Assembly: GCA_021648085.1 (NCBI GenBank)
Contig: JAKITS010000001.1
Span: 541,671-605,670 of the forward strand
Direction of reading: 5' to 3'
From: Candidatus Magasanikiibacteriota bacterium
GTDB lineage: Bacteria > Patescibacteriota > Patescibacteriia > Magasanikbacterales > UBA922
DNA: 64,000 nucleotides
This document shows positions 3,723 to 63,780 of the stretch, in pieces. The notes beneath the pieces are model-generated. The model searched no databases. It was not told the origin of the DNA and saw only the letters and a program-made list of their open reading frames with translations. Position 1 is the stretch's first letter; every line of letters begins with the position of its first letter. The translations under genes and the position numbers were made by a program.

Positions 3723-5897
3723 ATGATTAGTTCCGTTGAACTGCGTGAATTTTTTGTTTGTGGAACTTATTCAGAGACACAACACTCACTCTTACATATA
3801 AGTGAGCCTGAAAGCCCTGAGGAAAAAGACAAAGGGTATTTTTTTGCTATTGCAGAAATTAGAGAATCTACAAAAAAAGAAATAGAAAAAATTCAAGAAT
3901 TAATAAATGAAATAGAAATACTTTACTATAAAAGTGATGTTGGAAGTCATAGAGAAAACTTTGAAAAAATACTACAAAAAATAAACGAAGACGAAAAATT
4001 TGAAAAATTAAAAAAATCAAATATGGATCTTTTTGTGGCTGTTATGCGTGGGCACAGTATTTCTTTTGCACACAGAGGAACACCAAATGTTTTACTTTTT
4101 CATAATTCACACAACTCACTTCACCGAAAAAAACTTATTGAAAAAGATTTAGAGCAAAACTCAGACAAAATATTTTCCACAGTTGTAGAAGGAAAAGTAC
4201 ACTCTAAAAATTATTTTTATATATCAACCCCAAATGTAAGTGAAGTTTTTTCAAACGATAGAATACAAAAACTTCTCACATCTAGAACTGTAGAACAAAC
4301 AATAAAACACATTCAAAAAGTTTTAGAATCTATGTCAGATGGCTCATCTTACGGTGGAATTATTTGCAAAGTTCTAAACAGTGAAAACCAAATAGAGGAT
4401 GAACACAAAAAAACAGGATCAATCGAATCTATCGAACAGATGATAGACCACGAAAAAAACACACAAGAAACATTATCACCATCTTTTTTCTCAAACAGTA
4501 TAAACGAACTCAAAAAAATATTTTCACCACCTCATTTCAAACAAGACGATGAAAATATAAATTCCCCAAAAGCGAGACATCAAAATCAAAACACATCTAC
4601 AATAAATATGGTTTTGGTTACCACAGGAAAAGCCTTAGTTATAACATTTTTAGCAATATTTAGGATTATAAAATTTATAGCATTATTTACTTATAGACTA
4701 TTTTCTACTATATTTTTTCTTATCACAAAACCAAGTAAGAGAAACGAAACAAAAGAAAAGTGGAGAAAATATATTAACCATAAAAAACACTATTTCAAAA
4801 CAATGTCGATTCTGCACAAAATACTTCTTACACTTTTAATTATTCTTACAGCTACATTCATTGGAAGTATTGTTTTTATGAGAGTACAGACACAGCAAGA
4901 GCTAGAAAGGCAAATTTATGTTGGTCAAATACAAGAAATTATAAATAAACAAATAGAAGCTGAATCCAGTATTATTTATAAAGATGAAAAAACAGCTTTC
5001 AATTTATTAAAAGAAGCTGAAGAAATAATAAATAATCTGCCAAGTGAAAATAAAATTCAAGAGCAGAAAAAAGAAGAGTTAATAGCAGATTTAGATGTAA
5101 TATTTAGAAAACTTCGTAAAATAGAAATTGTAAAAGCAGATATTTTTGCAGAGCTTCCAGACGCTCGCATAAACAAACTAGAATTTATAGACAATATTTT
5201 AATTGCGTACAACAAAGATATTAAAACTTTATACAAAATAAATCTCGGAACAAAACAAATAGAAACACAGGAATACAATGAAACTTTTGATTTTACCCAA
5301 AGCACAGTACCAAAAGAAAATGATAAGATATTATTTTTAGATGATAACAACTCCATAATAGAATACGACAGAAAAACATCTTCCATCATATCTCAAGATA
5401 TTTCTTACCAAAAAGATAATCCCAACATAAGTAATATATTTATTTATAATCAAAGATTATATTCAATAGATATAAATTCTAGTGAAATTTATAAACACAA
5501 CGAGACACAAACAGGCTACGACAAAGGTGCACTTTGGCTAAAGCAAGATGTAGACTTGAGTGACGCTGTAGACTTGGCGATTGATTCTAGTCTTTATGTT
5601 CTAAAGTTAAATGGAGAATTGTTGAAATTTTCTAGCGGAGTTCAAGAGGAATTTTCCATAAATATGATAGATCCAGCGATGGAAGAGCCAACTCAAATGT
5701 GGACATATTCAGATGTGGATGAGATATTTATCCTAGAACCAAAACAAAAAAGAATTGTGATAATAGACAAAGGTGGGGTGCTGTTAAAACAATACACTTC
5801 TCTAGATTGGCAAAATCCAACCAGCATGAGCGTGGACATAGACAATAAGAAATTATATGTGATTGATAGTGGTAAGGTTTATAAGATTAATTTGTAA
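3723..5897 (+). CDS. Large hypothetical membrane protein (N-terminal cytoplasmic domain, two central TM helices, ~350-aa C-terminal extracytoplasmic domain)
   Basis: 724-aa intact ORF; hydrophobic segments around residues 295-375. No family recognised. Confidence 0.55.
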   Translation: MISSVELREFFVCGTYSETQHSLLHISEPESPEEKDKGYFFAIAEIRESTKKEIEKIQELINEIEILYYKSDVGSHRENFEKILQKINEDEKFEKLKKSNMDLFVAVMRGHSISFAHRGTPNVLLFHNSHNSLHRKKLIEKDLEQNSDKIFSTVVEGKVHSKNYFYISTPNVSEVFSNDRIQKLLTSRTVEQTIKHIQKVLESMSDGSSYGGIICKVLNSENQIEDEHKKTGSIESIEQMIDHEKNTQETLSPSFFSNSINELKKIFSPPHFKQDDENINSPKARHQNQNTSTINMVLVTTGKALVITFLAIFRIIKFIALFTYRLFSTIFFLITKPSKRNETKEKWRKYINHKKHYFKTMSILHKILLTLLIILTATFIGSIVFMRVQTQQELERQIYVGQIQEIINKQIEAESSIIYKDEKTAFNLLKEAEEIINNLPSENKIQEQKKEELIADLDVIFRKLRKIEIVKADIFAELPDARINKLEFIDNILIAYNKDIKTLYKINLGTKQIETQEYNETFDFTQSTVPKENDKILFLDDNNSIIEYDRKTSSIISQDISYQKDNPNISNIFIYNQRLYSIDINSSEIYKHNETQTGYDKGALWLKQDVDLSDAVDLAIDSSLYVLKLNGELLKFSSGVQEEFSINMIDPAMEEPTQMWTYSDVDEIFILEPKQKRIVIIDKGGVLLKQYTSLDWQNPTSMSVDIDNKKLYVIDSGKVYKINL

Positions 5898-21767: not shown

Positions 21768-24281
21768 ATGATTGAATCTGAACAATTTTTGGAAAATCTG
21801 TCAACACACCTCCGAAACACGATTACTGGCGGATTGACTCTCGCCACCACTTTAAACCATTGTGAGGTTAGTCCAGCTCACCTTCTTTTTGCGCTTGCAG
21901 AAGAGAAAGGTTCTGTTGGGATAGAAATTCTCAAAAAATTAAAAGTTGATAAAAAATTAATTTTTAATCTTCTTTCCATAACTCCAAAAACAGAAAAAGA
22001 TAAAGAAACAAAAAAACCAAAAATTCCAGAACTAAGTGAGACAGCAAAAAGAGCTTTGGAAAAAGCAATGCTTTTGGCTTATGAAGAAGAGCATGTTTAT
22101 GTTGGCACAGAACACCTACTATTTGGACTTGTAAACTGTGAAGATGTAAATATTGAATCCATTCTAAAGCAAGCTGGAGTAAGTATTGAAACAGCTGAAG
22201 AACAAATTGATATAGTTTTGGAAAGTACAAACAAATTTCCAAATTTGGACGATGTAAAAAATACTTTAGAGCAAATTAGTCGTCTTGCAAATTCTAGAGA
22301 TTTTAATAAAAATAAAACAAAAAAAGGAAAAAATAAAAAAAGGAAAAATTCTATACTAGGAGAATTTACAACAGATCTTACTCATAAAAATTCTCAAAAA
22401 AATCTAGATCCTGTAGTTGGTCGCGAACAAGAAATAACTAGAATTATTCACATACTTTCTCGTAGAACAAAAAATAATCCGGTTTTAGTTGGAGAGCCTG
22501 GGGTTGGAAAAACAGCAATTATTGAAGGTCTTGCGAGACGAATTGCAGATGGAGATGTGCCATACAATTTGCGAGGTAAAAAATTACTCTCACTCGATCT
22601 TACACTATTAATTTCTGGAACAATTTACAGAGGAGAGTTTGAGGCAAGACTAAAACAGGTAATAGACGAAATTTCTGCAAATTCAAAATATATTCTTTTT
22701 ATAGATGAGCTCCACAATATAATAGGAACTGGCTCAAACCAAGGAACAATGGATGCAGCAAACATTTTAAAACCAGCACTCGCTCGCGGAAAATTGCGCT
22801 GTATCGGTGCTACCACATTAGATGAATACAAAAAATACATATCTACAGATCCTGCACTAGAACGCAGATTTCAATCTATAGAAATAGATGAGCCAAGTAT
22901 CGAGGAAGCTAAAACAATTCTACACGGAATAAAACCTCATTACGAAAAATTTCATGATGTGGACATTACAGACTCTGCGATAGAAAAAGCTGTGGAATTT
23001 TCAACAAGATTTATTCACGAAAACTTCCTACCAGACAAAGCAATAGACCTAATAGACGAGGCTTGTGCTTTTGTTCGCACAAAATTGAAAAATCCAATAG
23101 ACGAAAAAATTCATAATTTTAAAAAAGAACTTAGTGATTTGAAAGAAGAAAAAAGTAAAGCAATATCACAAGAAAAATTTAAACTTGCCGGAGAATTGAA
23201 AAAATCGGAAAAAGATATTAAAGTAAAAATTAAAAAACTAAAAAAACAAAAATTTAACAAAAAAACTGGAAATCTTCCAAAAGTTGAAGTTGGGCATATT
23301 GCAGAAGTTTTAAGCGCAAGATTAAATATAGAAAAAGAGAATTTACTTGCAGACGACTGGCAAAGAGTAGAAAAAACTTCAAAACAATTGAACCAACACA
23401 TAAAAGGACAGACTCATGTTGTAGAAGAAATAAAGCAAAAACTTAGTCAAAGTTATCTAGGACTTGGAAATAAAAACAAACCACTTGCGTCATTTTTGTT
23501 TGTGGGACCAAGCGGAGTTGGTAAAACTTACACAGCAAAAATACTTGCACAAACACTTTATAACAACAAAAAATCTCTTATCAAACTAGATATGAGTGAA
23601 TTTTCAGAATCACACAGCATTTCAAAAATCCTAGGCTCTCCTGCTGGATATGTTGGGCACGACAGTAGAAATAAATTTACAGAAGCTATCAAAAAAAGAC
23701 CTTATTCTGTAGTACTTTTCGATGAGTTTGACAAAGCTCATCCAGATGTTCGTAAACTACTACTTCAAATTTTGGACGAAGGAGAAATCACAGACAGCTC
23801 CGGAAAAAAAGTAAAATTCAATCATTCTATAATAATTCTAACTTCAAATGTGGGAGCAGAATTATACAAAAACACAGAAATTGGTTTTGGTAAAAATGTA
23901 TCTAAAACACTAGACGAAGAAAAAAGAAGACGAATTCACAATAAAGTAAAAAAATCTTTTGGTGGAGATGTTTTGAGTCGTTTAAATTCTGTTTGTATTT
24001 TCAACCAGCTAAGTCAAAAAAACATAGAGCAGATAATTGAAAAACAAATAATAGACATCAATAAAAAATTGCAAGATAAACGAAAAATAAATTTGGTAGT
24101 AAGTCGTGGTGCTTTAAAAGAATTAGCAAAAAATAAATATTCAGAAGATTTTGGAGCAAGAGATATTGAACGCAAAGTCACTCAGACAATTCAAGAATTA
24201 CTAATAAATGCTCTAAATAAAAAAACAGAACAGGATACATATTCACTACAAATCTCAGAAGGAAAATACGAACTTGTGTAA
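21768..24281 (+). CDS. clpC: ClpC-like AAA+ chaperone ATPase (two AAA modules, Clp_N repeats, IGF ClpP-docking tripeptide)
   Basis: 837 aa; Clp N-domain repeats, Walker A GEPGVGKT and GPSGVGKT, short middle domain, IGFG loop in AAA2. Confidence 0.88.
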   Translation: MIESEQFLENLSTHLRNTITGGLTLATTLNHCEVSPAHLLFALAEEKGSVGIEILKKLKVDKKLIFNLLSITPKTEKDKETKKPKIPELSETAKRALEKAMLLAYEEEHVYVGTEHLLFGLVNCEDVNIESILKQAGVSIETAEEQIDIVLESTNKFPNLDDVKNTLEQISRLANSRDFNKNKTKKGKNKKRKNSILGEFTTDLTHKNSQKNLDPVVGREQEITRIIHILSRRTKNNPVLVGEPGVGKTAIIEGLARRIADGDVPYNLRGKKLLSLDLTLLISGTIYRGEFEARLKQVIDEISANSKYILFIDELHNIIGTGSNQGTMDAANILKPALARGKLRCIGATTLDEYKKYISTDPALERRFQSIEIDEPSIEEAKTILHGIKPHYEKFHDVDITDSAIEKAVEFSTRFIHENFLPDKAIDLIDEACAFVRTKLKNPIDEKIHNFKKELSDLKEEKSKAISQEKFKLAGELKKSEKDIKVKIKKLKKQKFNKKTGNLPKVEVGHIAEVLSARLNIEKENLLADDWQRVEKTSKQLNQHIKGQTHVVEEIKQKLSQSYLGLGNKNKPLASFLFVGPSGVGKTYTAKILAQTLYNNKKSLIKLDMSEFSESHSISKILGSPAGYVGHDSRNKFTEAIKKRPYSVVLFDEFDKAHPDVRKLLLQILDEGEITDSSGKKVKFNHSIIILTSNVGAELYKNTEIGFGKNVSKTLDEEKRRRIHNKVKKSFGGDVLSRLNSVCIFNQLSQKNIEQIIEKQIIDINKKLQDKRKINLVVSRGALKELAKNKYSEDFGARDIERKVTQTIQELLINALNKKTEQDTYSLQISEGKYELV

Positions 24282-24621: not shown

Positions 24622-24981
24622 TTGTCGGTTAAAATGGATAATACTTCACAAAATTGGGCAGTAGAACTGCAAAAACAAAAAACAAAACTCCAAAATAGTG
24701 GTGCTGATATTCAGGTTGAAAAAGAAAATAATGACTATGAGTTGAATAAAGTAAAAATAGATTTAATAAAATCCGCAGAAGAAAAAGATTTTAACAAAAT
24801 TGCAGAAAATTATAATAAATTGGTAGAGCTTTTTGCAAAAGAAACAGCCTTAAATCTACTAAATTTGGAAAAAAGATTTGGAACTGTAAATGAAATTGTG
24901 ATAAAAAACCAAGCGAAACTATTTACACAGGAATGTTTGGATGTAGCGCAAGCAGTTGATTCAATTTTAGATAGCAGCTAG
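24622..24981 (+). CDS. Hypothetical small protein (probable true start ATG at 24634), bracketed by SLR copies A and B
   Basis: 119-aa ORF (the track start is TTG); coiled-coil-like, no recognisable family. Confidence 0.45.
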   Translation: MSVKMDNTSQNWAVELQKQKTKLQNSGADIQVEKENNDYELNKVKIDLIKSAEEKDFNKIAENYNKLVELFAKETALNLLNLEKRFGTVNEIVIKNQAKLFTQECLDVAQAVDSILDSS

Positions 24982-25014
24982 ACTCCAGGCTTCCGACTTC
25001 AGTTTTTTATCATA

Positions 25015-25335
25015 TTGTTCTCTTCCTATCCTAAACCTCTCGAACATTTGAAATTTTTGGACTAATTTTTTATAAATATTTATGGTCCTTTTGAGAATAC
25101 AAAAGGATAGTGAGTGTAGCGAATTGCGGCGAGCCAAATAAATATTTATAAGAAATTAAGCCTAAAATTGTCATTAGTTCGGCGGTTTTAACTACCTTTT
25201 GGCAGCAAAAGGTAAGGTGAGAAAAACTTAGTTTTGAATTTAAATAAAAGTTTTACTCATATATCACGCTTAAGAGATTCTCGTCTGCCGGCGCGCAGGT
25301 CTCACTTTAGTTCGAAATGACAGAAAAAATAAATT
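25015..25335 (+). repeat. SLR family copy B (long form); its 3-prime module abuts the start of gene 25347
   Basis: About 85% identical to copy A over the shared 5-prime and central modules. 3-prime module CTGCCGGCGCGCAGGTCTCACTTTAGTTCGAAATGACAGAAA matches copy 41427. Confidence 0.7.
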
Positions 25336-25346
25336 AAACACAAAGT

Positions 25347-26405
25347 ATGGCAACTGCCGTAACAGCAGGACAACTTAAAAAAAGTGGGAGTCTTACGCGT
25401 TCTATTTTTGATAGTGGTGAATTTTTGCCAATTGTTGCTGTAGCTTTGAGGAGTATGGGTGCTGGTGGAGCAATTGCAGATGTGTTATCGAATATGAAAG
25501 GTTTTAGCATGAAAGATTTACTCGGAACAACAAAAACAATTGCAAAACAATATACTCCTGCGATGGCACAAAAAAAAATAATGAATGCTGGAAATAAAAT
25601 AAAGGATACTGGCAAAAAAATTAGTGATTCTGGAGCTTTCAAAGCCATAAAACAAAAAGCTGGTTTTGGAGACCACAGACCAAAACAAACAACTGATCCT
25701 GATTTTGCAACAGATGAACAACTTAGTCCAGAATTTGGAGGTGGAGACGAAAAAGAAGAAGAACAAGAAGAATCATCTTTTACAGAAGAACCGGATGAAA
25801 ATGAGGAAGATGAAGAAGATACTCCAGGAGAAAAACCATACCAGCCATTTTCTAAGCCAAAACCAGAAGAAGAAAAAGAAGAGCTAGACAAAAAAAAGAA
25901 AGAAAAACAAGAAAAAGAAAAAACTCCAAAAGAGAGCGATCAGGAAAGATCTAAAAAATTTCAACAAAGTAAAAACCAACAAAGATTAAGATCTAAAAAA
26001 GGAAATGGAAAAGAAGATGTTAAAAAGAGGAAAGGAGGAAAAGAAAAGAAGGAAAAGAAAGAGAAAGAAGGAAAAAAAGAATTTACAAATATAGAATTAA
26101 TAGTTTGGCTACCTTGTGCTATTGCAGCAGACATAGCATCTATTATTCCTTATGTTGGATTAGTTATTAGCTGGCCTTTTGGTATATCCTTTTTTATATT
26201 TAAATGGGTAAAAAAATTTAATAAATCTACCACAGTAATGGTTAGTGGTTTAGATGTAATTTTAGAAGGCTTTTTCTCTACTATTCCAGCGAATACAGCC
26301 GATGTGCTTATAACTTATTCTATTTCAAAAGCTAAAAAATATGGAGTTAAAATCCCTGATGCAGAAAAAAAACTAAAAAAAGTTACAGGCGCAAAACCAA
26401 AATAA
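25347..26405 (+). CDS. Hypothetical membrane protein with basic N-domain, highly acidic then lysine-rich low-complexity linker, and two C-terminal TM helices
   Basis: 352 aa; EEEQEESSFTEEPDENEEDEED followed by KKKEKQEKEK...KEKKEKKEKEGKK, then hydrophobic IELIVWLPCAIAADIASIIPYVGLVISWPFGISFFIF. First gene of a same-strand cluster. Confidence 0.6.
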   Translation: MATAVTAGQLKKSGSLTRSIFDSGEFLPIVAVALRSMGAGGAIADVLSNMKGFSMKDLLGTTKTIAKQYTPAMAQKKIMNAGNKIKDTGKKISDSGAFKAIKQKAGFGDHRPKQTTDPDFATDEQLSPEFGGGDEKEEEQEESSFTEEPDENEEDEEDTPGEKPYQPFSKPKPEEEKEELDKKKKEKQEKEKTPKESDQERSKKFQQSKNQQRLRSKKGNGKEDVKKRKGGKEKKEKKEKEGKKEFTNIELIVWLPCAIAADIASIIPYVGLVISWPFGISFFIFKWVKKFNKSTTVMVSGLDVILEGFFSTIPANTADVLITYSISKAKKYGVKIPDAEKKLKKVTGAKPK

Positions 26406-26471: not shown

Positions 26472-27689
26472 ATGGACAAAAAGCGTATAATTTTCATAGC
26501 GATATTTTCAGTAGCTGTAATAGGAATAGGATATCTTATGTATTCTATTTTTTGGAAATCTTCTGAACCAACAATAATACCACCAGATAAAACTGTCACC
26601 GATACCACAAAATTACCGTCTGGAGGATCTTTTGCACAAAGCGATGACAAGGAAATAAATGACACAACCACACCTGAAGTTGGAGGTGCAATAGTAATAA
26701 GACCTACAGAATTGCCAGATTCTGGAATAAGAGAGGTTACAAGAGTTGTTGCAGAAAATCTCATAAACCCAAAGATAAACTCAAATGGCGATGTAAATTT
26801 TTATAATACAATAGACGGAAAATTTTACACTTCACAAAATGGAGAAACAGTAGAAATGAGTGAACAAGTATTTTTTAATGTAGAAAATGTCGTATGGTCT
26901 GGAGTAAACAACGAATCCATCATCGAATATCCGGACGGCTCAAATATTTACTATAACTTTGATACAGAAGTACAAAGAACACTTCCAAAACATTGGGAAG
27001 ACTTTTCTTTTTCCAAACAAGGTGACCAAATAGTTGCAAAAAGTATAGGAATTTCACCAGAAAATAGATGGCTCGTGAGTAGCGATGCTGATGGAAATAA
27101 TGTAACTTTAATAGAATCACTCGGAGAAAATGCTGATAAAGTAACCGTAGACTGGTCACCAAACAAACAAATAATAGGAGTAAGTTTAGCTGGTGGAGTC
27201 GCAGGTGCAAACAGACAAGAAGTATTTTTTGTTGGTCAAAATGGAGAAAATTTTAAATCCATGATTGTAGAAGGAAGAGGTTTTGAATCTATTTGGTCGC
27301 CAAGTGGAGATAAGCTTTTATACAGTGTTTACAGTACACGAAGCCAGTACAAACCAGAATTATGGGTAGTGAGTAGTAAGGTTGGTAATATAGGCTCAAA
27401 CAGAAAAATGCTCGGCATAAATACTTGGGCAGACAAATGTGCATTTGGAGACGAAAGAAACCTTTACTGTGCAGTTCCAAACAACCTTCCAGTTGGTAGT
27501 GGTTTTAGTTCAGATTTAGCAAACACTGCCACATACACATTGATAAGAATAGATACACAAACAACACTTCAAACACCACTCCAAATGGATGAAATCCACA
27601 GCATCGACAAAATATTTTTATCCAATGATGGTGGTACGCTTTATTTTACAGACAAATTTGAATCAGGTTTATTTAGTATTTCAATATGA
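26472..27689 (+). CDS. Membrane-anchored TolB-like / PD40-type beta-propeller protein
   Basis: 405 aa; N-terminal TM helix; repeated WSPxxxxI/L blades (VDWSPNKQIIGVSL, IWSPSGDKLLYSV). Confidence 0.7.
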   Translation: MDKKRIIFIAIFSVAVIGIGYLMYSIFWKSSEPTIIPPDKTVTDTTKLPSGGSFAQSDDKEINDTTTPEVGGAIVIRPTELPDSGIREVTRVVAENLINPKINSNGDVNFYNTIDGKFYTSQNGETVEMSEQVFFNVENVVWSGVNNESIIEYPDGSNIYYNFDTEVQRTLPKHWEDFSFSKQGDQIVAKSIGISPENRWLVSSDADGNNVTLIESLGENADKVTVDWSPNKQIIGVSLAGGVAGANRQEVFFVGQNGENFKSMIVEGRGFESIWSPSGDKLLYSVYSTRSQYKPELWVVSSKVGNIGSNRKMLGINTWADKCAFGDERNLYCAVPNNLPVGSGFSSDLANTATYTLIRIDTQTTLQTPLQMDEIHSIDKIFLSNDGGTLYFTDKFESGLFSISI

Positions 27690-28309
27690 TAAAAACTAGA
27701 CATCTTTTTTTAGTTTTCATTCCAGCAATTGCTGTAGTTTCTTTTGCTTTATTTGTGCGAATAGTGCAATACGAACCAGTTTATGACAGAAATAAACCGC
27801 TAGACATTCCTCGACAAATGGCACAACTTTTCCCAGAAGATCCAATTTTAGGAAATAAGAAATCCCCAATTACATTAGTTGCTTTTGAAGATTTTAGCTG
27901 TCCTGCTTGCAGCACCCAATCAAAAATGCTAGATGATATATTGCTACAATACCCAAACAGTATAAAAATTATTTGGAAAAGTATAAGTACACATAAAAGT
28001 GAATTGGCAAATAATTATGCATATTGTGCAAACAAACAAAGAAAGTTTGCTGAATTCAAAAATCTTGCTTTTGCAAATCAAAACAATTTAAATATAGATA
28101 TTTTAAATATAATTTCTGAAACAATAGAATTAAACGAAACTAAATTAAACAAATGTTTAGCTTCTGGCGAAGCTGAAATTTATAATCAAAAAAATAGAGA
28201 CTTGGCAACTATTTTGCATGTGCAAGCTGTACCAACTTTTTTCTTGAACGATGTGCAACTTCAAACACCAAAATCTAGAGATGAATGGAAAAATGTTTTA
28301 GGACTATAA
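27686..28309 (+). CDS. DsbA-like thiol:disulfide oxidoreductase (thioredoxin fold, CPAC active site), membrane-anchored
   Basis: 207 aa; N-terminal TM helix; FEDFSCPACSTQ CxxC motif; start overlaps the upstream stop (ATGA). Confidence 0.75.
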   Translation: MIKTRHLFLVFIPAIAVVSFALFVRIVQYEPVYDRNKPLDIPRQMAQLFPEDPILGNKKSPITLVAFEDFSCPACSTQSKMLDDILLQYPNSIKIIWKSISTHKSELANNYAYCANKQRKFAEFKNLAFANQNNLNIDILNIISETIELNETKLNKCLASGEAEIYNQKNRDLATILHVQAVPTFFLNDVQLQTPKSRDEWKNVLGL

Positions 28310-28310
28310 T

Positions 28311-30392
28311 ATGAAAAATATTTCAAAAAATTATTTAATTTTTTCTTTTGTAATAGGATTAATTTTATTATTTTTTTCTTTTGGAATTGCGAAAGCTAGT
28401 TTAGATTATGAAGTTTATAGAATAAATCCAGATTTCCGAATTACACAAACAGCTAATACTGAAGCTCCCATAAAACAACTAGGTATTGTTAGTGTTGCGG
28501 ATAGTATAAGAAATACACTACCCGCACAATTTTGTGCTTGTAATGTAGAAGGAGCCAGTGGCCGATACACAATCACCGAACTTTCACAAAAAAGAGAAGA
28601 TTGTAGAACAGCAACTGTTTTTGAACCGCCAACAAGTGGAGGACTTTTGACAAATTGTAGTGCAAATAGTGATAGGAGCTCTTGTTTGTGTGATACAAAC
28701 ATAATATCCCCACTTACAAATTCTGAATCTCGTGCAGAAGTAGAACTAACAAGATTAAGAGATAAGAGTAAAGGAGGGGCATTACTACCACTTACAGACT
28801 CTAGATGTTCTACAAAATTAAATAATACACAATTTAGCTCTTGTCGTAATTCAAGTGCTATTATTAATACATGCACGTGTACTAGTTCTGAAACAAATAG
28901 AGTTTTAGAAAGCATCACTGAAGATATAACTTTATTAGGTTTTTCACCTGGATCATCGAGTTGTAATGATACTTATATTTTAAAAGATAAACCAAAAGTT
29001 TCAGTAAATAATTGTGAATGGATTGGTTTAGATGTGTCGCCAAAAACATCCACACAATCTTTTATTCAAAATAATCTTAGCGAAATAGAAGCAATTTTAA
29101 ACAAACCACAACTTCAAATAAAAATACCTGGATTGAGTTTTTCTGGAGAAGGTTTGAAAGCAGTTGAAGACGATGACGGTTCAAAATATTTTGTAGTTCC
29201 ATTTTTGGGAGAATATATTTCCGCAGTTTACAAATTTGCGGTTGCAGCTGGAAGTATTTTTGCTGTAATTATGATTATTGTGGCAGGGCTTCAGTGGATG
29301 ATACCTGGAAATATAACATCTTCTGGAGGTGGAGATAGTAAGGAAACAATAAATAAAGCTAAAAAAAGAATAGCCGGAGCTGTAACTGGTTTAATATTAC
29401 TAGTTGGTTCTTATACACTACTTTACACAATTAACCCAAACTTAGTTGAATTTAATGGATTGAAGGTTCAATTTGTAAATCCTGAGCCGTTTCCAGCTTG
29501 GATACCATTAGGTGATCATTTGGATTTAGACTCATTAGGTCTTGATGGTAAATTTACAGGATCTATAGGTGCCCCTCCAAAATTAAGTGGTGATATAGCA
29601 CAATGTATTTATAAAAACTTTTTAGATGGAAAAAACATTGGTGATGAACCAGATATAAAAAGAATTGACATACTTAATGGATTAGGAACCTCTAAAATTA
29701 ATATCAACGCTATAAGTGCGTGGGAAAAGGTTTCCAAAGAAATTTTAGCTAGTACAGATGTCGAGATACAAGGTTATTTGAGATATATGCGCGATTATAA
29801 AGATGGGAAAGTGCCTGACTTAACAGGTAATAATGATGGTAGAGGAATTATTTCGTCAGTAACTGGACGTATAGGTGTAAAAAGAAAAACAGGTGAAGTT
29901 ACTGAAAATATACTCCAAGATACTCATGTTTTAGGTTTAACTATTGATATAATGACTAGAAGTAATTGGGATATAAGATTAAAAGAATATACAGGTAGTA
30001 GAAAAATAAACCATACGGATTACTGTAATAAATATCAAAAAACTTTAGATAAATTTAAAAATGGAGATTTTAATACTGATGCTGGATTTGACTTAACTAC
30101 TGATCCATATAAAATGTATGATAGAATACAAAATAAAATAAATGGATGTTTTAATGTTTTTAATTTAAACTTAACTACAGGCCATCACGAACCTTTTACT
30201 TCATTTCCTGATGAATGGATTAGAATTTTCGAAACAAACAATTTTTATTGGGGAGGATGGGCCTGGGGAGACCCATTCCGAACAGATTCAATGCATTTTG
30301 AATATTATGGACCGGAATGTATTAAATATAGAAAAGAGAGAGATTTGCAAATTTTAGAAAAAAAATTAAGACAATTTACAAACTCTAGATAA
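28311..30392 (+). CDS. Multidomain envelope protein: signal/TM anchor, 12-Cys extracytoplasmic domain, two-TM hairpin, C-terminal M15/LAS-family zinc peptidase domain
   Basis: 693 aa; Cys-rich residues ~70-230; hydrophobic hairpin AVYKFAVAAGSIFAVIMIIVAGLQWMI...IAGAVTGLILLVGSYTLLYTI; QDTHVLGLTIDI matches the VanY/M15 SxHxxGxAxD motif and WGGWAWGDPFRTDSMHFEY matches the C-terminal metal-ligand motif. Starts 2 bp after the DsbA gene. Confidence 0.7.
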   Translation: MKNISKNYLIFSFVIGLILLFFSFGIAKASLDYEVYRINPDFRITQTANTEAPIKQLGIVSVADSIRNTLPAQFCACNVEGASGRYTITELSQKREDCRTATVFEPPTSGGLLTNCSANSDRSSCLCDTNIISPLTNSESRAEVELTRLRDKSKGGALLPLTDSRCSTKLNNTQFSSCRNSSAIINTCTCTSSETNRVLESITEDITLLGFSPGSSSCNDTYILKDKPKVSVNNCEWIGLDVSPKTSTQSFIQNNLSEIEAILNKPQLQIKIPGLSFSGEGLKAVEDDDGSKYFVVPFLGEYISAVYKFAVAAGSIFAVIMIIVAGLQWMIPGNITSSGGGDSKETINKAKKRIAGAVTGLILLVGSYTLLYTINPNLVEFNGLKVQFVNPEPFPAWIPLGDHLDLDSLGLDGKFTGSIGAPPKLSGDIAQCIYKNFLDGKNIGDEPDIKRIDILNGLGTSKININAISAWEKVSKEILASTDVEIQGYLRYMRDYKDGKVPDLTGNNDGRGIISSVTGRIGVKRKTGEVTENILQDTHVLGLTIDIMTRSNWDIRLKEYTGSRKINHTDYCNKYQKTLDKFKNGDFNTDAGFDLTTDPYKMYDRIQNKINGCFNVFNLNLTTGHHEPFTSFPDEWIRIFETNNFYWGGWAWGDPFRTDSMHFEYYGPECIKYRKERDLQILEKKLRQFTNSR

Positions 30393-30412: not shown

Positions 30413-31744
30413 ATGAAAATAAAAACTTTATTCACATGCTCGCATTGCGACGCCCAGTACCAGAAATGGACTGGGCGTTGTTTGGAATGTGGTAAATGGG
30501 GTTCTGTAGAACAAAAAACCACAAACTCAGTGCAAGAGCAAAAAAATAAAATCACAGCAGTCCCAACAAAAACCACAAAATTGTCAGAAATAAAAGGAAC
30601 ATCAATTCAAAGATTTAGCACAACCATCTCTGAAGTTGATCGTGTACTTGGAGGCGGAATTGTACCAGGAGTTTTGATTTTGCTTGGCGGAGAGCCAGGA
30701 ATTGGTAAATCCACCCTATCCATTCAGCTGGCAAACATTGTTCCAAATACAATTTATTTTTCTGGAGAAGAATCTATTGGACAGATTAAATTGCGTGCAG
30801 ACAGACTTGGGATAACTTCCAGCACTTTGGAATTAGCAAATGAAACAAGTGTAGAAATAATCTGTGCAACCATAAAAAATAAAAAACCAAAACTTGCTGT
30901 AATAGATTCTATACAAACAATTTATTCAAGCGAATCACAGAGTGAACTTGGGAGTGTAAACCAAATAAAAGCTTGCACAACAAAATTGCTGGAAGTGGCA
31001 AAAAGCACAAACACAGCAATCTGCATTATTGGGCATGTCACAAAAGATGGAAATGTTGCCGGACCAAAAACTTTGGAACATTTGGTGGATACAGTTTTGT
31101 ATTTGGAAGGAGACAGATACCACGCATATAGAATTTTACGAACAATCAAAAATAGATTTGGATCTACAAATGAAATTGGAATTTTTGAAATGAAAAACGA
31201 AGGTTTGTGCGAGGTAAAAAATGCTTCTGCAACTTTTATAGAAGATCGCGGTGAATCCACTTCTGGAAGTGTAATCACCTGCCTTCTCGAAGGCACACGA
31301 CCAATTTTGGTAGAAGTTCAAGCACTTGTAAACAAAACATCTTTTGGATATCCAGTCCGCAAATCTAGTGGTTTCGATTTAAACAGACTTCATGTTTTGA
31401 TAGCGGTTTTACAAAAAAGAGCAGGTTTAAATTTGTCTGAATATGATGTTCACTTGAATATTGTAGGTGGTGTTCAAGCCAAAGAACCAGCAGTAGACCT
31501 TGCAGTCTGCCTTGCGATTGCAAGCTCGTTTAAAGACAAAGAATTGGGAAGTGATTTGGTAGCTTTTGGCGAAGTTGGACTGGGCGGAGAAATAAGAAAT
31601 ATAAGCCAAACCGAAAAAAGAATAAAAGAATGCGAAAATCTCGGCATGAAAAGAGCTATAATAGCAAAGAGCAAAAAAAGTGTTCAAGGAGGTGTGAAAT
31701 TAATAGAGGTCAAAAATATTCAGGAATTGATAAGGCATACTTGA
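30413..31744 (+). CDS. radA: DNA repair protein RadA (Sms)
   Basis: 443 aa; N-terminal C4 zinc finger (CSHCDAQYQKWTGRCLECGKW), RecA-like Walker A GGEPGIGKSTL, KNRFG motif, Lon-like C-domain. Confidence 0.95.
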   Translation: MKIKTLFTCSHCDAQYQKWTGRCLECGKWGSVEQKTTNSVQEQKNKITAVPTKTTKLSEIKGTSIQRFSTTISEVDRVLGGGIVPGVLILLGGEPGIGKSTLSIQLANIVPNTIYFSGEESIGQIKLRADRLGITSSTLELANETSVEIICATIKNKKPKLAVIDSIQTIYSSESQSELGSVNQIKACTTKLLEVAKSTNTAICIIGHVTKDGNVAGPKTLEHLVDTVLYLEGDRYHAYRILRTIKNRFGSTNEIGIFEMKNEGLCEVKNASATFIEDRGESTSGSVITCLLEGTRPILVEVQALVNKTSFGYPVRKSSGFDLNRLHVLIAVLQKRAGLNLSEYDVHLNIVGGVQAKEPAVDLAVCLAIASSFKDKELGSDLVAFGEVGLGGEIRNISQTEKRIKECENLGMKRAIIAKSKKSVQGGVKLIEVKNIQELIRHT

Positions 31745-36252: not shown

Positions 36253-37380
36253 TTAAACACTAAACTCTTCTAATTCAACATCAACCAATTCTTCTAAAAC
36301 AGAGCCTAATTCATCCAACCCTAATCCTTCAGAAAAATCAGAAACAGTTAATGCCAGTTTAATATCAACTTGTCTTACAATATCTTCACTTTCTTGGCGT
36401 ATCTTTTCTAATTCACCTGCTATTTCTCCTGACATTTTTTCCAATATTTTATCAACTTCATCACTAATTTCTTGAATATCTCCAACCAACTTTCGTACAT
36501 CTTCCATAATTTTCAAATCTGGCAAAGTAGTTTGCTGAAAAACCTCTAAAGATACTCTTGTTTTACTAATATACTCTTCTTTGTCAATTTTAAAACCTCT
36601 TAAAATAACCTGCTCTCTTAAAAGATGTTCATTATATTTATTAACCGCATAAATAGCCAAATTTATATGTTTAGGAATCTTTCTGTTTAAGCGTTGGTAT
36701 TCATTTTTCCGCACCGAAAGAACTTCATTCAAACGAACAACCTCACTTAAATTAAACTCAATTCTTTTATATTGTTTTTGATAGTCGCTATCATTACCAA
36801 ACAAATCACTCTCTAACTCATTAAGTCTTTTTTTATTATGCTCAATAGCAAAATCATAATAATTTTTATCAAACTCATCTTTAAATTTATTTGGATTAAA
36901 TGATACCGCACAAAAAACTCCATTTGGTTTAAATTCTTTATATTCAAAATTATTTTCACATGACACATGTACAAACTTTTGTATATTTTCTTTGTTATAA
37001 AAGTTTAACAAAATAAAAAAAATAAAAACCAACAAAACAAAAGATAAGACAAAAGATAAAATACTTTGAAAAATTACAAGAAAAATAGGTAGATAAAAAC
37101 AAAAAAAAGGAATTATAGATAAAATCAATATCTTATTTCTAATATCATTTTTGTTTAAAATTAAAAACATATTATTTTTTTTAGATTGTTTTTCTATTTT
37201 TTTTAATATTTCCAATCTTTGATTTTCTTGTCTTACTATTTTTAATTCATAAGAAGCTTTTTCTTCTTTTACTTGATCTTCATATTTCTTTTTTGCCTTT
37301 TCAAACTCTTCATCATAAATATTACGGCGTATAGATACAAAATCTAACCACAATCTTTTTTTTAATGTATCGATTTTCAC
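36253..37380 (-). CDS. Hypothetical membrane protein with central TM hairpin and coiled-coil flanks (GTG start)
   Basis: 375 aa; hydrophobic ILILSIIPFFCFYLPIFLVIFQSILSFVLSFVLLVFIFFILLNF. Confidence 0.55.
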   Translation of the reverse strand: MKIDTLKKRLWLDFVSIRRNIYDEEFEKAKKKYEDQVKEEKASYELKIVRQENQRLEILKKIEKQSKKNNMFLILNKNDIRNKILILSIIPFFCFYLPIFLVIFQSILSFVLSFVLLVFIFFILLNFYNKENIQKFVHVSCENNFEYKEFKPNGVFCAVSFNPNKFKDEFDKNYYDFAIEHNKKRLNELESDLFGNDSDYQKQYKRIEFNLSEVVRLNEVLSVRKNEYQRLNRKIPKHINLAIYAVNKYNEHLLREQVILRGFKIDKEEYISKTRVSLEVFQQTTLPDLKIMEDVRKLVGDIQEISDEVDKILEKMSGEIAGELEKIRQESEDIVRQVDIKLALTVSDFSEGLGLDELGSVLEELVDVELEEFSV

Positions 37381-38567: not shown

Positions 38568-40004
38568 ATGCAGAGAACTGACATTAATTTTGTTTTACAA
38601 GGAGAGGATCAAGAGTCAAATCAACAAGAACCTGGCAAAAAACGTTCCAAGTTTTTTTTATTTTTGATTGTTTTTGTATTACTACTTTTGGGTGGCTATA
38701 CAGCACGCGCAATAACTTCAAACAGCTCAAACAATCCAGACGATTATGATCCTATAACACTAGAGCCTGTTCGACCTGAAGGAATCTTTCAAAGACTAAA
38801 ATATTTTGTATTTAACAAAGAGGTAAAACTAGAAGGGGAAAAAGATGACAGAATAAACATCCTGCTTTTGGGTATGGGAGGTTTAGGACACGACGGACCA
38901 TTTCTTACAGACACTATTATTATTGCAAGTATAAAACCATCCACAGGAGAAGTTGCAATGATTTCAATACCTAGGGATTTGGGAGTATATATAAAAGGTG
39001 AAGGTTGGTGGAAGATAAACCACGCAAACCACTTTGGAGAAAAACAAAAATCTAACCAAGGCGGAGCTTTTGCAACAGAAGTTATTTCTGACACTTTCAA
39101 CATAGATATTCCATATTATATTCGAGTAGACTTTAAAGCTTTTGAAAAGATTGTAGATGATGTTGGAGGCGTAAATGTCTTCGTTGAAAATGCTTTCAAA
39201 GATAGTCAATATCCAGCAGAAGACGATTTATATAAAACAATTTCATTTGCTCAAGGTGAACAAGAAATGAACGGAGAAACTGCACTTGAATATTCAAGAT
39301 CTAGACACGGAAACAACGGCGAAGGATCAGATTTTGCTAGAGCAAGAAGACAACAACAAGTTATACTAGCTTTAAAAGAAAAAGTATTTTCTTTTTCTAC
39401 ACTCGCGAACCCACTCAAAATTTACAACATTATAAAAACATTAGACAGACATATCACCACAAACATGGAGTTTGCTGATATCGTAACATTTATGAAAGTT
39501 ATAAAAGAAGATTTGGACACAAAAAATATAAAAACTTTTGTGTTAGACAATAGCCCAAACGGATACTTAAAAAATATAGTCGGCGCAAACGGTGCTTATA
39601 TGCTTCAGCCAAAAACTGGAGATTTCGGTGAAATAAATTATCTAATTGCAAATATTTTTGAAGCTCAGCCACAAAAACCACAAATAGTAGCAGAGCAAAA
39701 TTCACCAAAATATTACAGCGATGCTAAAATAGAAATACAAAATGGAACTTGGATAGCAGGAATGGCAGCAAGACTAGAAAACAAATTAGAAAAGAAAGGT
39801 TTTGATGTCGGTGAACTTGGAAATACTGCAGAGAGACCACAACAATTAAGTGGTATATATATAATAGGATCTGACCAAAAAACAGATACAGCAAAGGCGT
39901 TAAAAGAAGAACTAGGAATATCCATAAGAAAACTACCAAATAACTTGACTTTTACCTCCAGTAGTGATATTCTTATCATCTTAGGAACAGACTTTGAATT
40001 ATAG
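38568..40004 (+). CDS. LytR-CpsA-Psr (LCP) family cell-envelope phosphotransferase with C-terminal LytR_C-like domain
   Basis: 478 aa; N-terminal TM; LCP core INILLLGMGG...DTIIIASIKPSTGEVAMISIPRDL. Confidence 0.85.
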   Translation: MQRTDINFVLQGEDQESNQQEPGKKRSKFFLFLIVFVLLLLGGYTARAITSNSSNNPDDYDPITLEPVRPEGIFQRLKYFVFNKEVKLEGEKDDRINILLLGMGGLGHDGPFLTDTIIIASIKPSTGEVAMISIPRDLGVYIKGEGWWKINHANHFGEKQKSNQGGAFATEVISDTFNIDIPYYIRVDFKAFEKIVDDVGGVNVFVENAFKDSQYPAEDDLYKTISFAQGEQEMNGETALEYSRSRHGNNGEGSDFARARRQQQVILALKEKVFSFSTLANPLKIYNIIKTLDRHITTNMEFADIVTFMKVIKEDLDTKNIKTFVLDNSPNGYLKNIVGANGAYMLQPKTGDFGEINYLIANIFEAQPQKPQIVAEQNSPKYYSDAKIEIQNGTWIAGMAARLENKLEKKGFDVGELGNTAERPQQLSGIYIIGSDQKTDTAKALKEELGISIRKLPNNLTFTSSSDILIILGTDFEL

Positions 40005-52435: not shown

Positions 52436-53470
52436 TTATTTTACACCTTCTTCTGGCCACTCATAATTTTCAAAAGTCCAATACGCGATATCTCGCGCTT
52501 CTGTAAACCTATCCTCATGAACTTCTGCACCAAGTACTGCTATACTTAATATTTTACCATTTTTTCCTTTAACTTGCATAGTAAAGTTGTATCCAGACAA
52601 AGGAATATAACCTGTCTTACCACCAATAAATTCACCAAAATCACTTGGAATCCAGCCAAGTAAAAGCCAATTTGTATTCCACATTTTATGTTTTTTTGCA
52701 TTTTTACCTCGACTACTTACTATAAATTCTGTTTCCAAAAGTGTTTTTCTAATCTTTTTATGAAGCATAGCTTCCTCTAAAACATGTATTATATCAGACG
52801 CTGTAGAGATATTCCCACCATCTAATCCTGTAGGTTCCACAAAAAAAGTTTCAAACATCCCAAGTTCTTGTGCTTTTTCATTCATTTTTTCTACAAAATT
52901 TTCTCTTTCATCTACTAAATCCACCAATGTCAAAATTGCTCTATTCGATGATCCAACCAAAGACAAACTCCAAAGCTCTTCTGCGGTAAAAACCTCTCCA
53001 CCTAAAATATGGCTGTCAAAAATATCATCATATATTACAGATGTTGTAGTGGAAAAATCGATATTATAATCCAACAAAACAAGTGCACTCATCAATTTCG
53101 TAATACTTGCCAAAGAATGAAAACTATACTCATTTTTTCCAAACAAAACCTTACCAGTCTCAACATCTTTTACAATAATACTCTCTGCTGTAAAATCCTC
53201 TGGATCAGCCATATCACCAACCAGTTCTGGTAATTTTGGCAACACAACGACAGGTTCTACAGGAAAATCGCCACCTTCCAATTTTTCATCTATTTTTGTA
53301 TTTGCAGTCTCAACAGCACTCATTAAAAAAGAAAATTCTACCATATCCAAAGAACGTACAACAACAGGTGGTGCAAATAAAAAAAGCACAACAGCAACAA
53401 CTGAAACCACCCCAATTATATCTCTAATTTTATTTGGCCAATCTTTTTGTGATTTTTCTGGATTAAACAT
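52436..53470 (-). CDS. dacA: D-alanyl-D-alanine carboxypeptidase (S11 penicillin-binding protein)
   Basis: 344 aa; N-terminal TM; SxxK (SITK), SxN (SSN) and KTG (KTGY) motifs. Confidence 0.8.
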   Translation of the reverse strand: MFNPEKSQKDWPNKIRDIIGVVSVVAVVLFLFAPPVVVRSLDMVEFSFLMSAVETANTKIDEKLEGGDFPVEPVVVLPKLPELVGDMADPEDFTAESIIVKDVETGKVLFGKNEYSFHSLASITKLMSALVLLDYNIDFSTTTSVIYDDIFDSHILGGEVFTAEELWSLSLVGSSNRAILTLVDLVDERENFVEKMNEKAQELGMFETFFVEPTGLDGGNISTASDIIHVLEEAMLHKKIRKTLLETEFIVSSRGKNAKKHKMWNTNWLLLGWIPSDFGEFIGGKTGYIPLSGYNFTMQVKGKNGKILSIAVLGAEVHEDRFTEARDIAYWTFENYEWPEEGVK

Positions 53471-62457: not shown

Positions 62458-63729
62458 TTAAACTCTATCGTATTCATGCATTGTTATTTGTGCTTCCGTT
62501 TGTTTTGCGGTGTCAATTGCTACTGACACTACAATTAGCAAACTTGTACCACCAATCGCTAGCGATTGTGTCTGGGTTATTCCCTGCACAATCAAAGGAA
62601 GAATTGCAATACCTGCTAGGAATAAAGCTCCAAACAGTACTATCTTATTCATTGTTGATTTCAGATAATTTTCAGTTTCTTTACCAGGACGAATTCCTGG
62701 GATAAATGCACCTTGTCTTTGTAAATTTTCTGCCATCTGGTCTGGATGGAATATAACCTCTGTATAAAAGTAGGTAAATCCAAATACCATCAAGAAATAT
62801 AAAACTCCGTAAATAATCTGATTATTAAAAATATCAACTGTCACTCTCGCAACAGTACCCAAAACTCCTGGATTACTCACAAAGAATTGGGCGACAAGCG
62901 GAGGGAATAGTACAACTGAAATTGCAAAAATAATAGGGATAACTCCAGCCATATTCACACGAAGTGGTAAGTGTGTTTGCTGACCTTGACCTGCTCTACC
63001 TCGAATTTGCCGTGCATATTTAACAGGAATATTCCTTTGTCCCTCACTAATTATAACCACTGCAATTATCGTAATTACAGACACTATTGCAAATAAAACA
63101 TATGTAAACAAGTCTGCTGAGTTATAGTTTATAATTAAGTTTTGAAGAACTCCAGGAACAGCAGATATTATACCAGCAAAGATTAATAAAGATATACCAT
63201 TCCCAACTTTTTTTTCACTAATTAATTCTCCAATCCACATCAAGAACATAGTTCCTGCTGTAATTGTAATCATAATAGAGCTAAGTTGGAAAACAGTTAT
63301 ATCCCCTACAATATCATATTGAGACTGACGCAATATATTTATCATTGCGTAAGATTGTAAAAACGCAAGAGGAACAGTAGCAAGGCGAGTATACATACTT
63401 ATCTTTTGCTGACCTGCCTCGCCTTCTTTTTGCATTTCCTCTATCTTTGGATAGATCATACCCAAAAGCTGAAATATAATTGAAGATGTAATATAAGGTG
63501 CTATTCCAAGCATCACAATAGAGAAGTTCTCCATTGTTCCACCAGAAAACAAGTTCATCATTCCAAATATCTGATTTCCATCCAAAAATCTACCAAGATT
63601 TTCTACATTAATTCCAGGAACTGGAATGTGGGCTGCCAATCTGAAAACAACCAACATTGCCAATACAAACAAAACGTTTTTGCGAATATCTTTTATTTTC
63701 CAGATACGAATAATTTTTTCCCACCACAT
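62458..63729 (-). CDS. secY: Preprotein translocase subunit SecY
   Basis: 423 aa; 10 TM helices, typical SecY N-terminal signature. Confidence 0.95.
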   Translation of the reverse strand: MWWEKIIRIWKIKDIRKNVLFVLAMLVVFRLAAHIPVPGINVENLGRFLDGNQIFGMMNLFSGGTMENFSIVMLGIAPYITSSIIFQLLGMIYPKIEEMQKEGEAGQQKISMYTRLATVPLAFLQSYAMINILRQSQYDIVGDITVFQLSSIMITITAGTMFLMWIGELISEKKVGNGISLLIFAGIISAVPGVLQNLIINYNSADLFTYVLFAIVSVITIIAVVIISEGQRNIPVKYARQIRGRAGQGQQTHLPLRVNMAGVIPIIFAISVVLFPPLVAQFFVSNPGVLGTVARVTVDIFNNQIIYGVLYFLMVFGFTYFYTEVIFHPDQMAENLQRQGAFIPGIRPGKETENYLKSTMNKIVLFGALFLAGIAILPLIVQGITQTQSLAIGGTSLLIVVSVAIDTAKQTEAQITMHEYDRV

Positions 63730-63780
63730 AAAGTAAGTACTATAAAATTGAGTAAAAAGAAACAGGAACTACAAACAGTT

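Follow-up and report, generated by a model that had tools for sequence, protein, structure and literature searches.

In a 64,000-nucleotide stretch of DNA from a Candidatus Magasanikiibacteriota bacterium (contig JAKITS010000001.1; hereafter the window), a single open reading frame (ORF; 28311..30392, +) with an ATG start encodes a 693-aa protein that combines a type IV secretion system (T4SS) pilin and a predicted zinc cell-wall peptidase in one exported protein of an ultrasmall bacterium of the candidate phyla radiation (CPR). This fusion protein consists of a signal peptide, an ectodomain of CxC repeats, a VirB2-like pilin module, a linker and a LAS/M15 peptidase domain. Short stand-alone CPR pilins can be aligned with it from the signal peptide to a TINPxL motif and end soon afterwards; the fusion protein is therefore a complete pilin with ~230 aa inserted behind the signal peptide and ~300 aa added at the C-terminus. 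The initial annotation of the sequence had proposed a three-part architecture of Cys-rich ectodomain, hydrophobic hairpin and M15 peptidase, and the ORF coordinates, the 12 Cys of the ectodomain and the Pfam match of the hairpin all agree with it. The protein is identical to the NCBI 'hypothetical protein' L3J07_02865 of Candidatus Magasanikbacteria bacterium, encoded on a 984-kb contig, and no NCBIfam family matches it.

The evidence for a pilin comes from the centre of the protein. Twenty-one homologues were found to have one sharply bounded module in common (aa ~258-393), with flanking sequences that are unrelated between proteins. As defined by alignments, a local hidden Markov model (HMM) and Pfam family PF18895, the extended CPR pilin module (aa 258-393; 29082..29489, +) runs from the KPQLQIKIPGLSFS motif through a short β element and a two-helix hairpin to the YTINPNLVEFNGLKVQFV motif; the family pattern is KPxLxIKIPGLxFS, the short β element, two helices with a basic loop, and YTINPxLVxFxxLKVxYV. 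The local HMM scored 178 bits against the fusion protein with the full profile covered. PF18895 (T4SS_pilin) matched aa 301-366 with 28.3 bits against a gathering score of 26.6 (E 1.9e-6) and was also matched by 19 of 22 homologues. AlphaFold (AF2) modelled the hairpin as helices 297-330 and 343-374 with a predicted local distance difference test score (pLDDT) of ~90. The first helix (transmembrane helix 1, TM1; aa ~297-336; 29199..29318, +) contains the hydrophobic segment 302-336, and the second (TM2; aa ~355-376; 29373..29438, +), placed by alignment, hydropathy and AF2, ends with a near-invariant INP motif. Between them lies the loop NITSSGGGDSKETINKAKKR (aa 335-354; 29313..29372, +), present as quoted in the initial annotation, which is net positive by charge count and predicted to be cytoplasmic. 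Its first eight residues, NITSSGGG (aa 335-342; nt 29313-29336), are an insertion missing from nearly all family members, with a similar one only in P0008 (NIAVIGEG). The module is followed by a Pro/Gly/Asp-rich linker (aa 394-421; 29490..29573, +; pLDDT <50), the start of which is the boundary at which domains are swapped between relatives.

The module profile also recovered many stand-alone CPR pilins of 110-240 aa that are 30-45% identical, some of which carry the source name 'VirB2 component (pilin)'. Their alignment runs from a signal peptide over a P-G motif and the hairpin to a final TINPxL motif, after which the chains extend for another 10-20 residues. The set of features that marks the PF18895 pilins of Patescibacteria, namely signal peptide, hydrophobic helix pair, short basic loop and flanking PG and TINPxL motifs, is likewise present in the fusion protein, which unlike the stand-alone pilins has the extra conserved flanks IKIPGLSFS and LVEFxxLKVxYV. 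It differs from them in size, since stand-alone pilin subunits are typically ~100-200 aa and the fusion protein has 693 aa, its module being flanked on either side by a large domain. The PF18895 pilins of the type found in Southlakia epibionticum, where the array SEML1_0014-0019 is essential, are 100-190 aa long, stand alone and lie in arrays beside VirB4, whereas no VirB4 is near the fusion gene. A comparison of the module profile with PDB sequences gave no pilin match, so similarity to the solved VirB2/TraA pilins is undetectable by sequence. No second pilin module was found in the 64-kb window, where a weak match at 62461-63768 proved to be SecY. The likeness to VirB2/TrbC pilins noted at the outset reflects real homology, since PF18895 scores above its cut-off and stand-alone CPR pilins are 30-45% identical. 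The hairpin belongs to an entire and strongly conserved T4SS pilin module of the CPR type and is most likely more than a generic anchor. About 20 of the top module matches were single ORFs with 2-17 tandem PF18895-like hairpins, including P0146-P0156 (among them P0151 with 1147 aa and P0153 with 1775 aa), P0182, P0188, P0211 and P0277; these resemble 'poly-pilin' proteins, as though the genes of a pilin array had merged into a single frame.

A likeness of the hairpin to class II holins, also raised by the initial annotation, did not hold up. Such holins are two-TM proteins of ~70-100 aa encoded in phage lysis cassettes, and the fusion protein is 693 aa long, has a signal peptide and is encoded in the core chromosome. 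Derivation from a phage holin-endolysin fusion or a prophage lysis gene is extremely improbable, as the hairpin belongs to PF18895, the locus shows conserved core-chromosome synteny with no phage genes, and a signal peptide with a large N-terminal ectodomain is not a holin feature. A scan with PHROG profiles returned no holin or endolysin match, its best hit (E 0.003) covering the signal peptide and belonging to a family without known function; a phage holin/endolysin is effectively excluded.

To place the fusion in its family, the module profile was searched against 1.84 billion cluster representatives (50% identity clusters). There were 64,295 matches at E<=1e-3, which represent the whole pilin family, and 639 at E<=1e-30, which represent the full module. 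The best 150 matches together with earlier ones yielded 141 proteins with a single full module. In nearly all of these (139/141) the module is followed by 100 or more further residues (median 260), which sort into 14 clusters unrelated to one another, and in 80/141 the N-terminus is extended by 100 aa or more as well. The extensions are mostly Pfam wall hydrolases (M15_4, Amidase_2, C39_2, VanY, NlpC/P60, CHAP, M15, GH18, SLT and M23), with an occasional GDSL or α/β-hydrolase domain. The search revealed a large CPR family in which the enzyme domain is exchanged. The expectation that such pilins are not normally fused to hydrolases holds for classical VirB2 and needs qualification in the CPR class ABY1, where a family of hundreds of clusters has the fusion as a rule. 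The module is encoded in 480 GTDB species-representative loci, the best 79 of which were analysed as loci; they come mostly from named Magasanikbacteria, with a few from Uhr-, Falkow-, Komeili- and Peregrinibacteria, and many are TPA records titled 'uncultured Gammaproteobacteria', probably a placeholder. Two or three tandem fusion genes are present in 22 of the 79. Tandem fusions with different enzymes were also seen at L003:12097-13908 and L004:6163-7923, the L004 pair combining SLT plus a GDSL lipase beside an M64-like domain. No description of a pilin-hydrolase fusion was found in the literature searched or in the supplementary tables of a 2025 survey, where VirB2 entries are given without lengths or extra domains (PMC12102498). 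PF18895 pilins are known, as are VirB1-like hydrolases and M15 peptidases; their fusion appears to be undescribed, as judged from the literature searched.

Comparison of the three proteins with a CxC N-terminal domain (the fusion protein, P0001, with P0004 and P0005) revealed where the constraint lies. Pairwise identity is 26-33% in the N-domain and 75-82% in the pilin module, and the C-domains are unrelated (M15-like, Amidase_2 and one without a Pfam match), similarity breaking off directly behind ...LKVxF[VI]. In these alignments, no other part of the protein is nearly as constrained as the pilin module. P0005 (L001:8139-10013), encoded at the orthologous locus, has the same CxC N-domain and an 82%-identical pilin module and ends in 294 aa that match no Pfam family; this C-terminal region is a candidate for a new domain acting on the wall. 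In polymorphic effectors, a conserved trafficking module is followed by swappable C-terminal enzymes. The fusion family resembles them in its sharp boundary, unrelated C-terminal enzymes and tandem paralogues. It differs in the lack of an adjoining immunity gene and in the kind of enzyme, wall hydrolases taking the place of nucleases or deaminases; the fusion protein itself, moreover, stays membrane-anchored and is encoded at a conserved core-genome position.

The C-terminal domain of the fusion protein (aa 423-690; 29577..30380, +) was assigned by alignments and profiles to the LAS/M15-type zinc peptidases and has four invariant Cys (432, 572, 613 and 670). LAS/M15 peptidases are recognised by the metal-binding and catalytic pattern H-x6-D ... 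D-x-x-H-x-E. In the fusion protein, which contains the M15/LAS motif H-x(3-6)-D ... (D/E)-x-x-H, the predicted zinc ligands lie in H539-x6-D546 (HVLGLTID; 29925..29948, +), and the predicted catalytic Asp and third zinc ligand lie in D659-S-M-H662-F-E664 (30285..30302, +). Together with R525, both motifs are invariant across the six orthologues (numbering of the fusion protein encoded in the window). PF13539 (Peptidase_M15_4) scored 21.2 bits in the fusion protein against a gathering score of 25, with a C-terminal match at aa 609-665; four of the five other orthologues reached the gathering score (P0002 33.9, P0143 32.6, P0144 27.1 and P0003 25.0), and three of those matches spanned both motifs. 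Searches of the C-domain against PDB sequences by phmmer and profile gave only a marginal match to the M15B peptidase YodJ (4ox3; E 0.6), whose HxxGxAxD motif aligns with H539-x6-D546. Foldseek returned no significant match, the full-length model against the PDB being swamped by helical-hairpin matches. Collectively, these results point, with moderate but consistent support for the fold, to a LAS/M15-class zinc peptidase with intact catalytic residues, in agreement with the M15 peptidase originally proposed for the C-terminal end. The domain has the zinc-ligand and catalytic motif of the MEROPS M15/LAS peptidases (VanY, LdcB and VanXY of M15B; Peptidase_M15_4), and differs from them by ~100 aa inserted between the motifs, by extra N-terminal helices and by the four invariant Cys. 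Its subtype is a cluster of 14 members, drawn from module-bearing proteins only. The five further full-length proteins inspected (P0002, P0003 and P0143-P0145) all carry the pilin module, so that among these proteins the subtype, unlike M15/LAS peptidases at large, was found solely fused to it.

Hydropathy analysis identified three hydrophobic segments in the fusion protein (aa 3-32, 302-336 and 353-374), and exactly three are present in 104 of the 141 family proteins. The first belongs to an N-terminal signal peptide (aa 1-29; 28311..28397, +) with K2/K6, a hydrophobic core and A-K-A followed by S, which suggests cleavage after AKA and before S (aa 27-30); an equivalent segment is present in 119/141 family members. 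Because a signal peptide is combined with an even number of TM helices, both large domains are predicted to lie outside. The charge distribution agrees with this: the loop stretch aa 336-356 contains five K/R against two D/E, and across the family the mean net charge is +1.18 in the loop and -2.08 in the 15 residues ahead of TM1. The topology rule and the family statistics together give an unambiguous prediction of out-in-out, with both large domains outside and the basic loop in the cytoplasm. A peptidase trapped in the cytoplasm would have spoken against the original proposal; the topology places it outside, and charge bias and Cys parity concur. In TraA/VirB2 the loop is cytoplasmic in the membrane and lines the lumen in the filament, with both termini outside (PMC5018250), and the arrangement predicted for the fusion protein is the same, with external termini and a cytoplasmic loop.

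The N-ectodomain (aa ~69-240; 28515..29030, +) contains 12 Cys at aa 75-235, arranged in the sequence alignment as three tandem CxC-(20-39)-C-(12-21)-C repeats. P0004 and P0005, the sole homologues with a CxC N-domain, keep all 12. The AF2 model of this domain was poor. Across the family, the Cys count of N-terminal extensions is even in 72 of 75 cases. The signal peptide and the even number of TM helices make the domain extracytoplasmic, on the outer face where it had initially been put. Directly upstream, a gene (27686..28309, +) encodes a membrane-anchored DsbA/MdbA-like thiol-disulfide oxidoreductase with a CPAC motif (PF13462 at 1e-21), and the ATG of the fusion gene lies only 1 nt past its stop codon. 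This enzyme probably oxidises the CxC domain. The MdbA-like oxidoreductase family is enriched in CPR (PMC6744442).

As to the role of the fusion protein, we propose that the pilin module targets the enzyme to the site of T4SS or pilus assembly, perhaps into the filament, where it would open the peptidoglycan; we put the probability of this reading at about 0.45. The protein is predicted to be exported by Sec and anchored in the membrane by its VirB2-type hairpin, with the basic loop in the cytoplasm. The module would then take the enzyme to the membrane site at which the T4SS or pilus is assembled and VirB2-like pilins are handled, and the peptidase would cut peptidoglycan stem peptides locally, as a VirB1-like wall-opening activity covalently tied to VirB2. 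Since pilin termini lie outside the filament, the protein might also enter the filament as a decorated minor subunit. Because the linker has only ~30 residues, the membrane-embedded form would reach only the producer's own wall, and access to a host wall would need incorporation into a pilus.

Links to T4SS genes were found in some relatives. In L078, a single strand carries, in this order, PrgI (PF12666, above cut-off), a 225-aa gene, a VirB4-like gene, two further genes, a PD40-like gene, a 98-aa ORF, a DsbA-like gene and the fusion gene; L081 is arranged alike from the VirB4-like gene on. A VirB4-like ATPase lies just past recG in L038, L054 and L073, with an intervening ComF-like gene in L038, and downstream of the fusion in L066, where recG was undetected. 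In five of these six loci the fusion is the sole pilin-like gene detected; the listing for L066 left its two tandem fusions unresolved. ABY1 T4SS loci commonly contain comF, recG and radA (PMC12102498), and the fusion loci with VirB4 near these genes match that published content. In two named Magasanikbacteria genomes, a VirB4-TrsD core was described, one with adjoining PrgI/VirB3, and VirB2-like genes were often distant; most genomes with VirB2 had no recognisable VirB1 (PMC12102498). In S. epibionticum, the one system studied by experiment, essential separate hydrolases flank VirB4, six short PF18895 pilins lie in the cluster, and SEML1_0007, next to VirB4, has a C-terminal Hedgehog/DD-peptidase (LAS) fold (PMC10633639 supplement). 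Since this T4SS cluster has a separate LAS-fold peptidase and pilins, the fusion joins two functions that are found as neighbours elsewhere. Like the VirB1-type hydrolases that serve secretion machines (PrgK of pCF10, TraG of pIP501, TcpG and CwlT in Gram-positive T4SSs, and SEML1_0006/0007 beside VirB4 in S. epibionticum), the fusion protein is membrane-tethered and extracytoplasmic, with modular, variable catalytic domains in its family, and its predicted C-terminal LAS fold is like that of SEML1_0007. In contrast, VirB1-type hydrolases have a single N-terminal TM helix or signal anchor and a gene separate from the pilin, whereas the anchor of the fusion protein is a pilin homologue; their typical domains are SLT, CHAP and NlpC/P60. 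Thus, of the features of the VirB1-like class, the tether and the predicted enzyme are present in the fusion protein, and membership of a T4SS cluster only in some relatives.

Several points weigh against targeting to a T4SS. VirB4, VirD4, VirB6 and PrgI are absent from the 64-kb window, which covers 28 kb upstream to 34 kb downstream of the gene and was also searched by tblastn, and a VirB4-like ATPase (PF19044, AAA_10 or DUF87) lies within 10 kb in only 6 of the 79 loci. The gene is located among housekeeping genes. Enzyme swapping between close relatives and tandem paralogues (22/79) would be more typical of a system for conflict or host interaction than of a housekeeping VirB1. By our estimate, a homopolymer with two ~30-kDa domains per subunit looks sterically implausible, and we know of no CPR T4SS pilus that has been seen experimentally.

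The genomic setting would also suit an ordinary membrane-anchored autolysin, in which the pilin-like hairpin was co-opted as a two-TM anchor for remodelling of the cell's own wall in growth or division, with no T4SS link. We consider this rather unlikely. The position between clpC and radA with housekeeping genes around it, the lack of T4SS genes in the window, the conservation of the locus across the clade and the envelope neighbours (PD40-like and DsbA-like, with LytR-CpsA-Psr nearby) are all consistent with it. However, anchors rarely keep 75-82% identity while adjacent domains diverge or change, and pilin motifs have been kept outside the TM helices; with 26-33% identity in the N-domain and unrelated C-domains as the comparison, the module is, on this sequence evidence, more constrained than an anchor requires. 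The interchange of amidase, DD/LD-carboxypeptidase, endopeptidase, transglycosylase and GH18 domains at an orthologous position does not fit a defined housekeeping step, and the block directly adjoins PrgI-VirB4 in some relatives.

The same swapping suggests a host-directed lysin displayed on a pilus or contact zone, which we regard as a serious, if unlikely, alternative. Here, as in the outward delivery considered by the initial annotation, the fusion protein would polymerise with a VirB2-like filament or cap it, both ectodomains would decorate the outside of the filament, the N-domain would bind the host surface, and the enzyme would digest the host wall for attachment, feeding or DNA/protein exchange. 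Three different C-domains behind modules of 75-82% identity, 14 C-domain clusters in all, variable N-domains, tandem paralogues in 22/79 loci and the likeness to the logic of polymorphic effectors are in line with such a role. The next gene, radA, begins after 20 nt, and the lack of an adjoining immunity gene fits a target in other species. F-type pilin termini lie on the outside (PMC5018250), and CPR epibionts need their T4SS and pilins, which are essential for growth on the host (PMC10633639, PMC12857230). Against these points, polymerisation of the fusion proteins is an assumption, there is no release or processing site, bulky domains on every subunit would crowd the filament, and a conserved place in the core genome, apparently at one locus only, is not what typical effector islands show. 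More speculative, and in our view quite improbable, is the idea that in ABY1 the T4SS pilin now serves to carry exchangeable enzymes, its module polymerising alone or with short pilins into a filament that is studded with hydrolases and Cys-rich binders and bores through the host wall. If true, a conjugative-type pilus with catalytic subunits would be a first and would offer a mechanism by which epibionts gain access to hosts, and the rapid exchange of the C-terminal cassette would follow differences in wall chemistry between hosts.

No T4SSs other than those of CPR/Patescibacteria have been shown to be essential for the bearer, and among monoderm T4SSs only these have VirB2-like pilins (PMC12857230, PMC10633639). 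Read as a Rosetta-stone-type argument, the fusion points to cooperation between pilins and wall hydrolases in these systems. The pilin-borne hydrolase family is a concrete candidate for the missing wall-opening (VirB1) function in CPR and may explain how these bacteria open cell walls for a pilus or secretion machine. It also represents a natural catalogue of swappable, exported, disulfide-stabilised wall hydrolases on a defined targeting module, including some domains without a Pfam match.

Around the fusion gene, the local order is clpC, a 119-aa gene, a 352-aa gene, a 405-aa PD40-like gene, the DsbA-like gene, the fusion, radA, IMPDH and recG, and it was found again in all seven metagenomic contexts examined (7/7). 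Neighbours were counted only in those of the 79 loci with enough flanking sequence. The DsbA-like gene is directly upstream of the fusion in 60/74 loci, and the PD40-like gene (59/68) and clpC (46/55) lie upstream; radA (49/62) and recG (35/43) lie downstream. The 405-aa protein (26472..27689, +) has an N-terminal TM helix and a PD40/β-propeller-like region (a weak PD40 match; 62-member cluster). Its gene is the most conserved neighbour and overlaps the start of the dsbA-like gene by 4 nt. The block also contains the genes for the 119-aa and 352-aa proteins (24622..26405, +), which are conserved in only part of the clade; jackhmmer detected them in 22/79 and 28/79 loci, respectively. The 352-aa protein (25347-26405) has a long, charged, K/E-rich disordered region, C-terminal TM helices and a weak DUF2207_C match, which is also present in the 298-aa product of a gene after VirB4 in L078; homology of the 119-aa and 352-aa genes to the post-VirB4 genes of L078 and L081 was not demonstrable. 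No immunity-like ORF lies between the fusion gene and radA (30413..31744, +), and radA is separated from clpC (21768-24281) by the five-gene envelope block. In Firmicutes operons, clpC adjoins radA (B. subtilis ctsR-mcsA-mcsB-clpC-radA-disA). This comparison suggests that the envelope block was inserted into an ancestral clpC-radA pair. A scan for promoters and terminators over 24-32 kb gave counts equal to the shuffled expectation and found no terminator between the dsbA-like, fusion and radA genes.

The window as a whole is ordinary core chromosome, encoding DnaE, PheST, an RseP-like protein, PGM, ClpC, RadA, IMPDH, RecG and LytR, and further Der, Pth, DprA, TopA, RelA/SpoT, ParAB, AspS and SecY, among others. 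Two ORFs, 3723-5897 (+, 724 aa) and 36253-37380 (-, 375 aa), matched no Pfam family even at E 0.1. Also encoded in the window are a Peptidase_S11 DD-carboxypeptidase (52436-53470, -) and a LytR-CpsA-Psr protein (38568-40004, +), so that ordinary peptidoglycan and wall-polymer machinery is present beside the fusion protein.

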